Below, in pieces: positions 2,476 to 5,787 of a stretch of 53,614 nucleotides of DNA (position 1 is the stretch's first letter; each line of letters opens with the position of its first letter). Both the position numbers and the translations under genes were made by a program. The DNA comes from a virus, in the IMG/VR virus record IMGVR_UViG_3300024346_000015, positions 1-53,614 of that record; one strand, given 5' to 3'. The notes beneath the pieces are model-generated. The model was given only the letters and a program-made list of their open reading frames with translations. It was not told where the DNA came from and searched no databases.

Positions 2476-3171
2476 ATGAACAGAGATATTAAAAAATTCC
2501 ACGAATGCGGTTATGTCATAGTTACCGACTTTCTCAGCGACTCGCAACATGAGGAGTTGGTGAAAGAATGTCATAATCTTGCCGACTTCGGTATGCATAA
2601 TCCCGATAAGTTTTGGGTTTTAAATGCACCAAACAATCCATGTAAACTTGACGGTGTAATGGAGTTGTCCGGTAAGTTATTTAGACTTGGTAGAAATGAG
2701 ACGTTGGTCAAGTATGCAAGGGAACTGATAGGGCCCGATATAGAGACCTATATCTCTAAGTTCTTTCCCATGATACCAAGGGAAGGATTCTCTGTAGACT
2801 GGCATCAAGACAATCATTACATAAAGGCAGATCCAAATAAGATGATCAGTTGTGATGTGTTTGTTGAAGGTGCGTCCAAAGAGAATGGTTGTCTACGTAT
2901 CATACCCAACTCTCAACATGAACTACTGCCCCACGAATTGACATCTCACGATGTATTCGATTGGATAGAAGATAGACATTGGGACAATATCATAGACATA
3001 GAACTAGACGAACCTTTTGCCATACTCTTTCACCCTCAGTTAATCCACAGTTGTTATCGTAACACTAGTGATCGATTTAGATACAGTGTTGCGTGGGAAT
3101 ATATCACCACCGATAACCACTCACCTATACACCGAGGGCATCATTCTCAAGATCGTTTAAATATCGCTTGA
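2476..3171 (+). CDS. PhyH/phytanoyl-CoA dioxygenase family 2OG-Fe(II) oxygenase
   Basis: FHECGY start, WHQD (HxD), ENGCLRIIPNS, LIHS...N.SDRFR motifs. Confidence 0.9.
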   Translation: MNRDIKKFHECGYVIVTDFLSDSQHEELVKECHNLADFGMHNPDKFWVLNAPNNPCKLDGVMELSGKLFRLGRNETLVKYARELIGPDIETYISKFFPMIPREGFSVDWHQDNHYIKADPNKMISCDVFVEGASKENGCLRIIPNSQHELLPHELTSHDVFDWIEDRHWDNIIDIELDEPFAILFHPQLIHSCYRNTSDRFRYSVAWEYITTDNHSPIHRGHHSQDRLNIA

Positions 3172-3221: not shown

Positions 3222-4352
3222 ATGATTTTAGAACATAAAGATGCGTTATACGCAGCAAATGCTTTTGATGAGTTCTTTGGAAACATAGAACGCATCGATG
3301 AATACATGAGACAGATCAAGATGGAACGTATGGAATCCTTTCCGTACTCTCTGCCTGGCATGGGGCCAGAAGAAGATCTGTTCAGCAACTTCGATATCCA
3401 TCCGTCAGAGATGGAGTTTGTAATACAAGAATCACCCGCACAACAGTTCATGTCCTACATGGAGATTGTCACGTCCGCACCCGTGGAAGCGTCAATTCCA
3501 GGCAAGGGACTGAAGTGGGTTATCAAAGAGAAGAATACTAACATGGTTGTTGGTATGATTCGTTTCGGTTCTCCTACTATTAATAGTAGACCACGGAACG
3601 AATGGTTAGGACGACCACTAGACAGTATGAATCCAGACGTAATGAAACGGTTCAATGACTCCGCAATCATGGGGTTCAACATTGTACCGACTCAACCGTT
3701 CGGTTACAACTATCTTGGTGGTAAGTTACTGGCCGCAATTTGTTGTTCCCACCACACACGTGAGGCATTGAACAAGAAGTACAATTCAAACTTCTGTATG
3801 TTCGAGACTACTTCGTTATACGGGTCAACAAAGTCTGCATCGCAGTATGATGGTATGAAACCATTTCTGCGGTTCAATGGTTTGACAGACTCAAACTTCT
3901 TACCACTAATCAATGACAACACTTACCGCAGACTTAGTGCATGGTTCGTTGAAAAGAATGGTGGTGAACCCTTGGTTCCTGTGGACGCCTCATCTCGTAA
4001 ACTAAAAACACAGACCAAGATGGCATCTATTATCAAAGCCTCTCTCAAGGTACATGATGAGAATGCCTATAAGAAGTTCTGTCAAACTTATTCGGATGCA
4101 AAGGGACTGACGGAACGTAAACGTTCTTTCGTGTCTACCTACGGGTACGACAACGTCCCTGCGTATTTGAACCTAGAAACCGATACATTGATCAAGAAAG
4201 AGAATTTCGACAGATTCTCTCTAGAGGGTGTTACTGCATGGTGGAAGAAGAATGCCATCAAACGTTATGACAAACTCAAGAGTGAAGGTCGTTTGCGTAG
4301 ACAAGTAGAGACTTGGAATGTAAATGCAGACGACATTGATATTATAAGATAA
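3222..4352 (+). CDS. DUF4338/DruA-like protein (possible GNAT/Mom-related fold)
   Basis: GSP...PRNEWLG, PFGYNYLGGKLLA and ETTSLYGS..SQYDG motifs recalled for DUF4338 proteins; the fold link is inference. Confidence 0.7.
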   Translation: MILEHKDALYAANAFDEFFGNIERIDEYMRQIKMERMESFPYSLPGMGPEEDLFSNFDIHPSEMEFVIQESPAQQFMSYMEIVTSAPVEASIPGKGLKWVIKEKNTNMVVGMIRFGSPTINSRPRNEWLGRPLDSMNPDVMKRFNDSAIMGFNIVPTQPFGYNYLGGKLLAAICCSHHTREALNKKYNSNFCMFETTSLYGSTKSASQYDGMKPFLRFNGLTDSNFLPLINDNTYRRLSAWFVEKNGGEPLVPVDASSRKLKTQTKMASIIKASLKVHDENAYKKFCQTYSDAKGLTERKRSFVSTYGYDNVPAYLNLETDTLIKKENFDRFSLEGVTAWWKKNAIKRYDKLKSEGRLRRQVETWNVNADDIDIIR

Positions 4353-4433: not shown

Positions 4434-5420
4434 ATGTCAATCATAACACTAGCTGATTATGTCAGCACAAATACAGACCATATCGCGTTACCCGACTACA
4501 CTGACCTTGGTGTAGAATCCGTAGAAAACATTGTACTATCTTTTGACCAGATTCATATCGATGATATCACTGGCAACGTAGGTAAGGTAGACACCCACAC
4601 TGGCGCTGAGATCGAACAACTTAGGTTGTCTTTCGCTGACGGTGTCGATTCCCAAGAGTTTCCACCCGCAGTTTATTACCGTGGTGCGGCGTTTAGTAAA
4701 CCATACGTCCTTGTATATGGTTACGGTAGATCCGAAGCGATTCGTGCTTTGGGACAAAAAGAGTGGATCTTTACTTTGTTCGCTGGTACACCAGAACAGA
4801 TGGAAGATGTACAGGCACAAGAGAACGAGGGATATCCCAAGCGATTCAACAAAGAAGTCGATATGCGTAAACACCTGAGTCGCAAAGTTGCAAATGGTCG
4901 CATCAAGAATACAGAGAAGGCGATTACCAAAGAGTTCATTAGAATCTACGGTAAGACACGAGATAAGACTTGTCGTAACCGTGTAGTGAAAATGGTTATG
5001 GAAGCGGCAGATACGCCACAACCGTATATCCTATATACCTCTGTCCCTAAAGTACAGGATTGGGTATCTAACCACTCTTCGGTAGAACATGTTATCGGTG
5101 GTGAGTTCAGTGAGGAAACCAACTCATACGGTGTATGTATCGGTGAAGGTTATCAGTATCGTGTTATCATGCAGGCTGTTAATCGTTACATGGAGACAGG
5201 TAAGTTTACCAACCTTATTGGTCATGTAGGCGCACCGACTTCAAAGGCGACACTAGAGATCAAACGAAAGAGATTTGTTGATCAGTTAAATACACACAGA
5301 CAGGCATTAGAGTATTGTGGGTTGACTACATTCCCCGTGAGACTTCTTGGTTTCTTACCACAAGAACAGGGTAAAGAAAGTTTGAAACAATTAGTAAAAT
5401 ATTCCTTGCCAAACAACTAG
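4434..5420 (+). CDS. Hypothetical protein, possibly with a divergent ParB/Srx-like N-terminal domain
   Basis: 328-aa ORF with AGGA RBS; PPAV...YVLVYGYGRSEAIRALG resembles the ParB Y.I.DG.HR..A...LG motif. Confidence 0.55.
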   Translation: MSIITLADYVSTNTDHIALPDYTDLGVESVENIVLSFDQIHIDDITGNVGKVDTHTGAEIEQLRLSFADGVDSQEFPPAVYYRGAAFSKPYVLVYGYGRSEAIRALGQKEWIFTLFAGTPEQMEDVQAQENEGYPKRFNKEVDMRKHLSRKVANGRIKNTEKAITKEFIRIYGKTRDKTCRNRVVKMVMEAADTPQPYILYTSVPKVQDWVSNHSSVEHVIGGEFSEETNSYGVCIGEGYQYRVIMQAVNRYMETGKFTNLIGHVGAPTSKATLEIKRKRFVDQLNTHRQALEYCGLTTFPVRLLGFLPQEQGKESLKQLVKYSLPNN

Positions 5421-5435
5421 AGTTTGTGTTATAAT
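5406..5435 (+). promoter_or_regulatory. Sigma70-type promoter with extended -10 for the tRNA
   Basis: TTGCCA (5406-5411), 18-nt spacer, TGnTATAAT (5427-5435), 13 nt before the tRNA 5' end. Confidence 0.8.
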
Positions 5436-5448
5436 ATACCCATATTAT

Positions 5449-5520
5449 GCGGAGTTAGTATAATGATTACGTTAGGTGTCCAACCTAAAGATGGGGGTTC
5501 AAGTCCTCTGCTCCGCTCCA
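5449..5520 (+). tRNA. tRNA-Gly (anticodon TCC), non-canonical, with encoded CCA
   Basis: Cloverleaf GCGGAGT-TA-GTAT-AATGA-TTAC-G-TTAGG-TGTCCAA-CCTAA-AGAT-GGGGG-TTCAAGT-CCTCT-GCTCCGC-T-CCA; G1-C72, C2-G71, G3-C70 and U73 are Gly identity elements. Confidence 0.9.
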
Positions 5521-5531
5521 AACATTTTTCC

Positions 5532-5555
5532 CCCCACTTCGGTGGGGTTTTTTTT
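5532..5555 (+). terminator. Rho-independent terminator after the tRNA
   Basis: CCCCAC-TTCG-GTGGGG hairpin followed by T8. Confidence 0.92.
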
Positions 5556-5580: not shown

Positions 5581-5787
5581 CTATTCCCCTTCTGGTGCTG
5601 TTGCATCTGTGCCAGTCTTTTCCGCAACATCTTTAATCAAATTTGATGTCACATCTAACACACCGGCAGTTACACCAAAGACATCTGAACCAACACCTTT
5701 AATAACACCACCAGTACCATCGATAGTTGCATCGACAGTTGAACAAGCAGACAGAACTAATGCGAATGCAATTGCAATAAAACGCAT
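5581..5787 (-). CDS. Small lipoprotein, entericidin-like
   Basis: Signal peptide with lipobox LSAC, then a Gly-rich amphipathic helix; AGGAG RBS; late promoter at 5890. Confidence 0.8.
   Translation of the reverse strand: MRFIAIAFALVLSACSTVDATIDGTGGVIKGVGSDVFGVTAGVLDVTSNLIKDVAEKTGTDATAPEGE

Follow-up and report, generated by a model that had tools for sequence, protein, structure and literature searches.

A conserved phage tRNA-Gly with G33 and a D-loop without GG, encoded next to a DruA/DUF4338-family GNAT gene, as a possible carrier of glycine outside translation

Comparative sequence analyses indicated that the tRNA-Gly(UCC) gene carried by the window is functional and under selection. 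The window is the whole stretch of DNA analysed here, namely the initial 53.6 kb of an IMG/VR viral contig of 122 kb whose completeness was estimated by CheckV at 74%. We tentatively propose, giving the proposal somewhat under an even chance, that this tRNA is a stable and chargeable carrier of activated glycine which serves mainly a GNAT of the DruA/DUF4338 family and not a boost of translation. The evidence that favours this reading is the selection on the gene, its status as the sole tRNA, its linkage to the GNAT gene, the predicted fold of the GNAT, the co-occurrence of the two genes in other phages, a parallel in the Pelagibacter phage HTVC008M and the codon use of the clade.

The source phage is a T4-like myovirus in which the major capsid, scaffold, protease, portal and tail-tube genes were recognised with PHROGs. 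It belongs to a clade of uncultured marine phages, and judged by the capsid protein it comes closest to the isolates Phage C48C1 (69%), OM43 phage Melnitz (61%) and SAR11 phage HTVC008M (60%). The tRNA-Gly gene lies at the end of a plus-strand island located between the capsid and tail-tube genes, which adjoin each other in C48C1. Ahead of the tRNA the island contains a PhyH dioxygenase gene, the gene of the DruA/DUF4338 protein and an ORF of 328 aa (Table 1). The PhyH-family gene was found in some relatives only. The 328-aa ORF gave no match in Pfam or PHROG and was kept, swapped or missing among the loci retaining the GNAT gene together with the tRNA. Because of this swapping and absence in many loci, the ORF is unlikely to be a member of a dedicated three-gene system. 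Look-alikes of the 328-aa ORF provide a lead only, ParB_N being present on 12% of the members of one atlas cluster. The 68-aa ORF beyond the terminator gave no family match.

Table 1. Position of the tRNA-Gly gene, its signals and the neighbouring genes in the window.
Feature	Position	Strand	Basis or remark
PhyH-family 2-oxoglutarate/Fe(II) dioxygenase gene	2476-3171	+	Pfam 88.9 bits; heads the island
DruA/DUF4338-family protein, 376 aa, predicted GNAT fold; candidate glycyl-tRNA user	3222-4352	+	PF14236 41.7 bits, phrog_19197
328-aa ORF between the GNAT gene and the tRNA	4434-5420	+	Variable passenger, probably outside the core
Sigma-70-type promoter of the tRNA gene, TTGCCA-18-TATAAT with TG extension	5406-5435	+	11/12 consensus positions
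tRNA-Gly(UCC): G33, GG-less short D-loop, encoded CCA, full presumed GlyRS identity set	5449-5520	+	ARAGORN, Rfam
Intrinsic terminator: 6-bp GC-rich hairpin (5532-5547), then a run of eight T	5532-5555	+	
68-aa ORF between the tRNA terminator and the capsid gene	5581-5787	-	91-96% conserved in many relatives

ARAGORN called a single tRNA in the window, the tRNA-Gly(UCC), and a search with Rfam RF00005 scored it at 44.4 bits against a gathering score of 29, so that both programs recognised the gene that a preliminary description had proposed; Rfam detected no second tRNA anywhere in the record of 122 kb. The features on which that description was built, namely G33, a short D-loop without GG, an encoded CCA and a promoter and terminator of its own, could all be read in the sequence. 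The acceptor end consists of G1-C72, C2-G71, G3-C70 and U73 with the encoded CCA. The anticodon loop UGUCCAA places a G at position 33 ahead of U34, C35 and C36, and the D-arm GUAU/AAUGA/UUAC has one G and no GG, its loop being of 5 nt if the U13-U22 mismatch is counted as stem and otherwise of 7 nt on a 3-bp stem. The T-loop is the canonical UUCAAGU and the minimum-energy fold is a cloverleaf.

The acceptor positions G1-C72, C2-G71, G3-C70 and U73 together with C35 and C36 make up what we take to be the GlyRS identity set. These positions were invariant across all nine variants of the tRNA family, in agreement with the earlier claim that the set is intact, and on their account the tRNA can probably be charged by GlyRS. 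The wobble pairs U7-G66, G49-U65 and G51-U63 that had been noted earlier are present in the window tRNA, but the last of them is a minority state, being found in three of the nine variants, while A51-U63 occurs in most relatives. A promoter equivalent to that of the window, TTGACA-17-TATAAT/TACTAT, was found at the same distance in nearly all related loci, and the terminator stem varies compensatorily in relatives (CCCCTC/GAGGGG, CCCCAC/GTGGGG and CCCCGC/GCGGGG). Comparison with the 251 other distinct tRNAs that ARAGORN called in all the phage loci fetched revealed that none of them has G33 (247 have U33) and that one, the tRNA-Gly of HTVC008M, is without GG in the D-loop region.

The tRNA was recovered from IMG/VR viral contigs by two pattern scans and one protein-anchored scan, as a family of 44 loci with nine distinct sequences, the window being included in both numbers. 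When these relatives were inspected for a canonical U33 or GG, every carrier of the family was found to keep G33 and the short GG-less D-loop (44/44 loci). The D-loop is AAUGA, AACGA or AAUUA, and loci L128 and L129 are without any G in it. All 180 stem cells of the nine variants are standard pairs, and three pairs, 6-67, 28-42 and 29-41, carry compensatory changes on both sides; no change on both sides was seen in any of the slid controls of the stem alignment. G6-C67 is replaced by A6-U67 within the family, and L128 and L129 replace two adjacent anticodon-stem pairs. No variant departs from U34 or A37. Conservation extends to the promoter hexamers and the terminator hairpin while the spacer, the leader and the upstream sequence have diverged, and the identity of the neighbouring proteins among relatives is as low as 64-77%. 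A 144-kb relative, 100% complete and with terminal repeats, has the G33 tRNA-Gly as its only tRNA.

A pseudogene, against which the preliminary description had already argued, or a sequencing error is ruled out by the conservation of nine variants over 44 loci, by the compensatory changes and by the kept promoter and terminator. A bacterial or prophage origin was also rejected, since a pattern made of the T-arm and acceptor of the tRNA-Gly found no match in 185,579 species genomes. The tRNA of the window was found in no isolate phage by blastn. In the most divergent members of the family (L128:1122-1193 and L129:1598-1669) no terminator hairpin lies downstream and the tRNA leads straight into the start of an ORF; their context is rearranged, with the capsid gene on the other side.

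The distant relative G002 is without the G33 tRNA and has elsewhere, beside tRNA-Arg genes, a canonical tRNA-Gly(UCC) for which no close isolate match was found. Since this canonical tRNA has the same acceptor 5' strand and the same D-stem, the G33 tRNA looks like a derived normal phage tRNA-Gly. About a dozen substitutions separate the nine variants, and with so few the conservation of G33 shows that G33 is ancestral and tolerated, not that G is preferred over U.

In all loci whose upstream sequence was long enough, the DruA-like gene precedes the tRNA gene on the same strand at a distance of 50-1500 nt, and swapping or absence of the gene between them does not break this linkage. The neighbouring protein was assigned to Pfam DruA and not to FemAB. 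Its AF2/AlphaFold model (pLDDT 75.8) revealed a GNAT core, with long helices at residues 232-297 between core strands. An exhaustive search with the model in VIA-align placed Mu Mom (8bv8) at rank 1 with a Z of 9.7, an rmsd of 3.8 and 167 residues aligned, dozens of GNATs being within 1 Z, and S. aureus FemA (1lrz) at rank 2 with a Z of 9.5; FemX had a Z of 8.3, and these Fem matches are tied with ordinary acetyltransferases. Foldseek returned weak GNAT matches only. A search of all 122 kb of the record with the Pfam Mom family PF25680 gave nothing at E <= 10, and the DruA-like protein had no match among PDB sequences, so that no sequence-level relation to Mom or to a solved structure was found.

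DruA-like homologues were present in 31 phage records. Those of isolates are 43-55% identical and lie inside the replication module, between the clamp-loader genes gp44 and gp62 or directly after the DNA polymerase gene gp43; the homologue of S-SCSM2R was named 'methylcarbamoylase mom' by its depositor. DruA-like homologues number more than 6600 and are mostly without such an aberrant tRNA, and in G002 and in locus L127 the GNAT gene is present and the G33 tRNA absent. The DruA family occurs in Druantia defence systems, though the YprA paper makes no mention of DruA, and we know of no biochemistry for any DUF4338 protein. A study of 2026 showed that Mom takes glycine from Gly-tRNAGly and attaches it to N6 of adenine in dsDNA (PMC13219725), and Fem enzymes use Gly-tRNAGly for peptidoglycan bridges (PMC7826273).

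If the GNAT consumes Gly-tRNA, phages that carry the GNAT should tend to carry a tRNA-Gly. This premise was tested on tRNA sets listed from whole records by Rfam search and ARAGORN (Table 2). A tRNA-Gly was found in 15/16 DruA-like-positive against 4/15 DruA-like-negative marine T4-like lineages (one-sided Fisher p = 1.6e-4, with kinship ignored), the genomes having been hand-picked before their tRNA content was known and the lineages not being independent. Among the phages with five tRNAs or fewer, tRNA-Gly occurred in 5/6 positives and 0/8 negatives (p = 0.003). Mosig, which was scored as negative, has a weak DUF4338 match. The DruA-like-negative phages with small tRNA sets retain Arg(UCU) and Leu(UAA) instead of Gly. 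In Synechococcus phage Syn19 (GU071106.1, L250/L256 region) ARAGORN called a tRNA with the anticodon CUA, labelled Pyl, which would be an amber-suppressor-type tRNA in a cyanophage.

Table 2. Occurrence of tRNA-Gly in marine T4-like lineages with and without a DruA-like gene.
DruA-like gene	Lineage	tRNAs	tRNA-Gly
+	This clade	1	Yes (sole)
+	HTVC008M	1	Yes (sole)
+	G002	3	Yes
+	Sf-CH8	3	Yes
+	S-SSM7	5	Yes
+	S-T4	7	Yes
+	S-PRM1	8	Yes
+	S-CAM9	8	Yes
+	S-SRM01	at least 8	Yes
+	S-SCSM2R	9	Yes
+	Sf-FS3	10	Yes
+	SynMITS9220M01	10	Yes
+	S-SM2	11	Yes
+	DSL-LC02	12	Yes
+	S-CREM1	25	Yes
+	S-B68	4	No (exception)
-	S-BM3	11	Yes
-	S-SKS1	at least 10	Yes
-	DSL-LC03	13	Yes
-	Syn1	6	Yes
-	C48C1	7	No
-	Melnitz	4	No
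-	Mosig	3	No
-	S-CAM8	5	No
-	Syn33	5	No
-	S-SM1	6	No
-	Syn19	6	No
-	S-ShM2	1	No; the one is Arg(UCU)
-	S-SSM5	4	No
-	P-RSM4	3	No
-	P-SSM7	4	No

The Pelagibacter phage HTVC008M (KC465899.1 91140-91210; L167:1501-1574) provides a parallel, since like the clade of the window it is a DruA-like-positive T4-like marine phage whose sole tRNA is a tRNA-Gly (49.5 bits). The HTVC008M tRNA resembles that of the window in its D-stem GUAU/UUAC, its GlyRS identity set, its encoded CCA and its D-loop without GG, but it differs in having the anticodon ACC (A34), a U33 and the T-loop AGCGUUA, which is without UUC. It is located 8 kb from the DruA-like gene and does not share an island with it, while the window tRNA shares the island of its DruA-like gene. 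The HTVC008M tRNA was identical in 11 IMG/VR contigs; the pattern scan gave identical copies only, which hold no covariation information. Placed side by side, the two sequences indicate that two related lineages have each damaged different ribosome-facing parts of a tRNA-Gly and spared the charging parts, and separate damage of this kind would be expected of a gene that decoding has ceased to constrain.

The preliminary description had supposed that the wobble pairs of the T-stem weaken the binding of EF-Tu. Affinities were predicted additively from the T-stem contributions that Schrader and Uhlenbeck published (PMC3239215 Table 2), on a baseline of -10.1 kcal/mol (Table 3). The window tRNA receives terms of -0.9 from G49-U65, which is the tightest pair at its position, 0.0 from G50-C64 and +0.8 from G51-U63, and the resulting affinity is ordinary. 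With an outlier threshold of 1.3 kcal/mol from the class mean (PMC3239215), neither the window tRNA nor the majority variant of its family is an EF-Tu outlier in the additive model. Weak EF-Tu binding via T-stem wobble pairs is not supported by this published model, and the supposition was abandoned.

Table 3. EF-Tu binding predicted by the additive T-stem model.
tRNA	Predicted binding (kcal/mol)
Window tRNA	-10.2
Majority family variant (A51-U63)	-9.9
G002 canonical tRNA-Gly	-9.5
HTVC008M tRNA-Gly	-9.6
Bacterial Gly(UCC) class mean	-10.8
Staphylococcal non-proteogenic tRNA	-9.5

The same description had called the tRNA unfit for the ribosome. The rare G33 accompanied by the lost elbow GG stands, but the wording was too strong: the T-loop is canonical, and tRNA-Ser(CAG) of Candida albicans has G33 and decodes CUG (PMC8178436), so that G33 alone does not preclude decoding. 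The remaining oddity is the combination of G33 with a lost G18G19 elbow contact; U33 normally forms the U-turn of the anticodon loop, and G18G19 of the D-loop pair with psi55 and C56. Analysis of Gly codons showed that GGA and GGG together account for 26% genome-wide, GGA alone for 20%, and that in the major capsid genes of the clade GGA/GGG have a median of about 5% of Gly codons, as in phages without tRNA-Gly. Codon use may be taken as a weak hint for a non-translational role.

From these data we infer how the tRNA would be charged, kept from the ribosome and used by the GNAT, and also the acceptor. Host RNA polymerase would transcribe the tRNA early from the strong sigma-70 promoter, and RNase P and 3' trimming would release a tRNA already bearing CCA, which the host GlyRS would charge via G1-C72, C2-G71, G3-C70, U73, C35 and C36. 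The G33 and the lost G18G19 elbow contact would reduce use in the ribosomal A site and leave a pool of Gly-tRNA for the GNAT. If it acts like Mu Mom and the Fem transferases, the GNAT would pass this glycine to an acceptor outside the ribosome. DNA would be the likeliest acceptor because in other phages the homologues belong to the replication module. The non-proteinogenic glycyl donor of the preliminary description survives in this form, with the GNAT linkage, the tRNA-Gly co-occurrence and the HTVC008M parallel in its favour, but it has lost its EF-Tu argument.

Several points speak against a dedicated glycyl carrier. The EF-Tu affinity predicted by the additive model is ordinary and stronger than that of the canonical tRNA-Gly of G002, the T-loop is canonical, and the anticodon loop is invariant, its U34 and A37 being as expected of a decoder; G33 tRNAs can decode, as that of Candida does. 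DruA-like genes are very widespread and mostly without an aberrant tRNA, as in G002 and L127. A dedicated carrier is not required, because Mom accepts every tRNA-Gly isoacceptor. The structural matches of the predicted model to Mom and FemA are tied with those to ordinary GNATs and come with no sequence-level link to Mom. The co-occurrence is drawn from hand-picked related genomes and has an exception in S-B68.

It is also conceivable, in our opinion unlikely, that the tRNA-Gly translates GGA/GGG and that its G33, perhaps with the altered elbow, resists an anticodon-loop nuclease that destroys host tRNA-Gly(UCC). This reading and that of a glycyl carrier are not mutually exclusive. In its favour, PrrC-type nucleases cut at the 33/34 junction. 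The evasion of tRNA-targeting defences by phage tRNAs via changes of the anticodon loop is established (PMC10264068, PMC11464382, PMC11555353). The strong early promoter, the 20% share of GGA in the Gly codons of the phage and the normal look of the EF-Tu affinity and the T-loop would all agree with a resistant decoder, and the canonical tRNA-Gly(UCC) kept by G002 suggests a standing need for the isoacceptor. However, no tRNA-Gly-specific nuclease was found in the literature on phage tRNAs and tRNA-targeting defences, and the eLife paper on phage tRNA anticodon loops contains nothing on position 33 or glycine. Resistance to a nuclease leaves the loss of G18G19, the GNAT linkage, the co-occurrence and the HTVC008M tRNA with its A34 and degenerate T-loop unexplained, and GGA is avoided in the capsid genes.

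We also consider it improbable that the gene is an ordinary codon-supplementing tRNA in which G33 and the short D-loop are tolerated near-neutral quirks fixed in the ancestor of the clade. Many T4-like cyanophages have a tRNA-Gly(UCC), the Candida G33 shows that decoding does not strictly depend on U33, and the nine variants are so few substitutions apart that retention of G33 by descent alone is not improbable; yet a single G-to-U reversion would restore U33 and was never seen. Two near-universal features would moreover have been lost together, although GG is lacking in 1/251 and G33 present in 0/251 of the other phage tRNAs. The GNAT-less marine T4-like phages with few tRNAs keep Arg(UCU) and Leu(UAA) and in 0/8 cases Gly, and the most expressed late gene has few GGA/GGG codons. 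That the gene encodes a decoy or regulator, a tRNA-shaped RNA titrating a host factor (a defence sensor, a tRNA-modifying toxin, GlyRS or RelA) with no need for glycine delivery, would fit an RNA that is apparently early-expressed, stable, tRNA-shaped and altered in its ribosome-facing parts, but is very improbable in view of the strictly conserved GlyRS identity set and encoded CCA, which point to charging, of the GNAT linkage, which a decoy does not predict, and of the lack of any known candidate target.

Extending the glycyl carrier to other phages gives a more doubtful proposal, according to which many marine, and perhaps freshwater, T4-like phages would possess a two-part modification system made of a DUF4338/DruA GNAT and a phage glycyl-tRNA carrier that in several lineages was progressively withdrawn from translation. 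The withdrawal would form a series from the canonical tRNA of cyanophages through the G33/GG-less tRNA of this clade to the tRNA of HTVC008M with A34 and a degenerate T-loop. If the two-part system is true, the carrier would provide the first example of a viral tRNA dedicated to a task outside the ribosome. The roles usually assigned to phage tRNAs are codon supply and, lately, escape from tRNA nucleases; non-ribosomal aminoacyl transfer would add a third. The DruA/DUF4338 family, with thousands of homologues in marine and other metagenomes, would gain a testable biochemical activity, and abundant ocean phages, including the cultivable SAR11 phage HTVC008M, would carry an unrecognised modification, probably of DNA. 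Even under the rival explanations, the strict conservation of a G33 tRNA that has lost the G18G19 elbow offers a rare natural experiment in which the tolerance of the bacterial ribosome and of EF-Tu is probed.

Both components have precedents, the tRNA in the non-ribosomal tRNA-Gly of staphylococci and the enzyme in Fem and Mom, which are GNATs dependent on aminoacyl-tRNA; the pairing of a carrier encoded by a phage with a DUF4338 enzyme would be a new form of these. The phage tRNAs that escape defences, such as tRNA-Lys of T5 against PARIS, tRNA-Tyr against retron Eco7 and the mycobacteriophage tRNAs (PMC11464382, PMC11555353, PMC10264068), are like the window tRNA in being phage-encoded, in their anticodon-loop difference and in their early expression, but they keep U33 and normal elbows and serve translation, while the window tRNA has G33 and a GG-less D-loop. 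The tRNA-Ser(CAG) of Candida albicans (PMC8178436) shares with the phage tRNA a natural and conserved G in place of U33; in contrast, it is a eukaryotic cytoplasmic tRNA with a normal D-loop which decodes CUG, and its G33 lowers mischarging by LeuRS.

Mu Mom (PMC13219725; 8bv8) is a phage enzyme whose GNAT fold has a helical insertion, and it ranks first, in a tie with ordinary GNATs, among the structural matches of the model of the neighbouring protein, likewise a phage protein with a predicted GNAT core. Its activated donor is glycyl-tRNA, the same donor being proposed for the neighbouring GNAT. No sequence-level relation between the two proteins was found, and Mu carries no tRNA of its own, Mom using any host isoacceptor, whereas the window phage encodes a tRNA. 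The staphylococcal tRNA-Gly(UCC) species NP1-3, donors for FmhB, FemA and FemB (PMC7826273), are like the phage tRNA in their UCC anticodon and their lack of G18G19, and they are charged by the normal GlyRS, as the phage tRNA would be. They are bacterial and have the T-loop UGC/UGU, in which the U that becomes psi55 is missing, while the window tRNA is phage-encoded and its T-loop keeps UUC; the predicted EF-Tu binding is -9.5 kcal/mol for the NP tRNA and -10.2 to -9.9 kcal/mol for the phage tRNA. G33 is present in the phage tRNA, and PMC7826273 names no U33 change among the NP features. A Fem-family gene was not found for the phage tRNA, its candidate partner being the DUF4338 protein; the consumer in staphylococci is a GNAT-fold aminoacyl-tRNA transferase, the same kind of enzyme as that proposed here.
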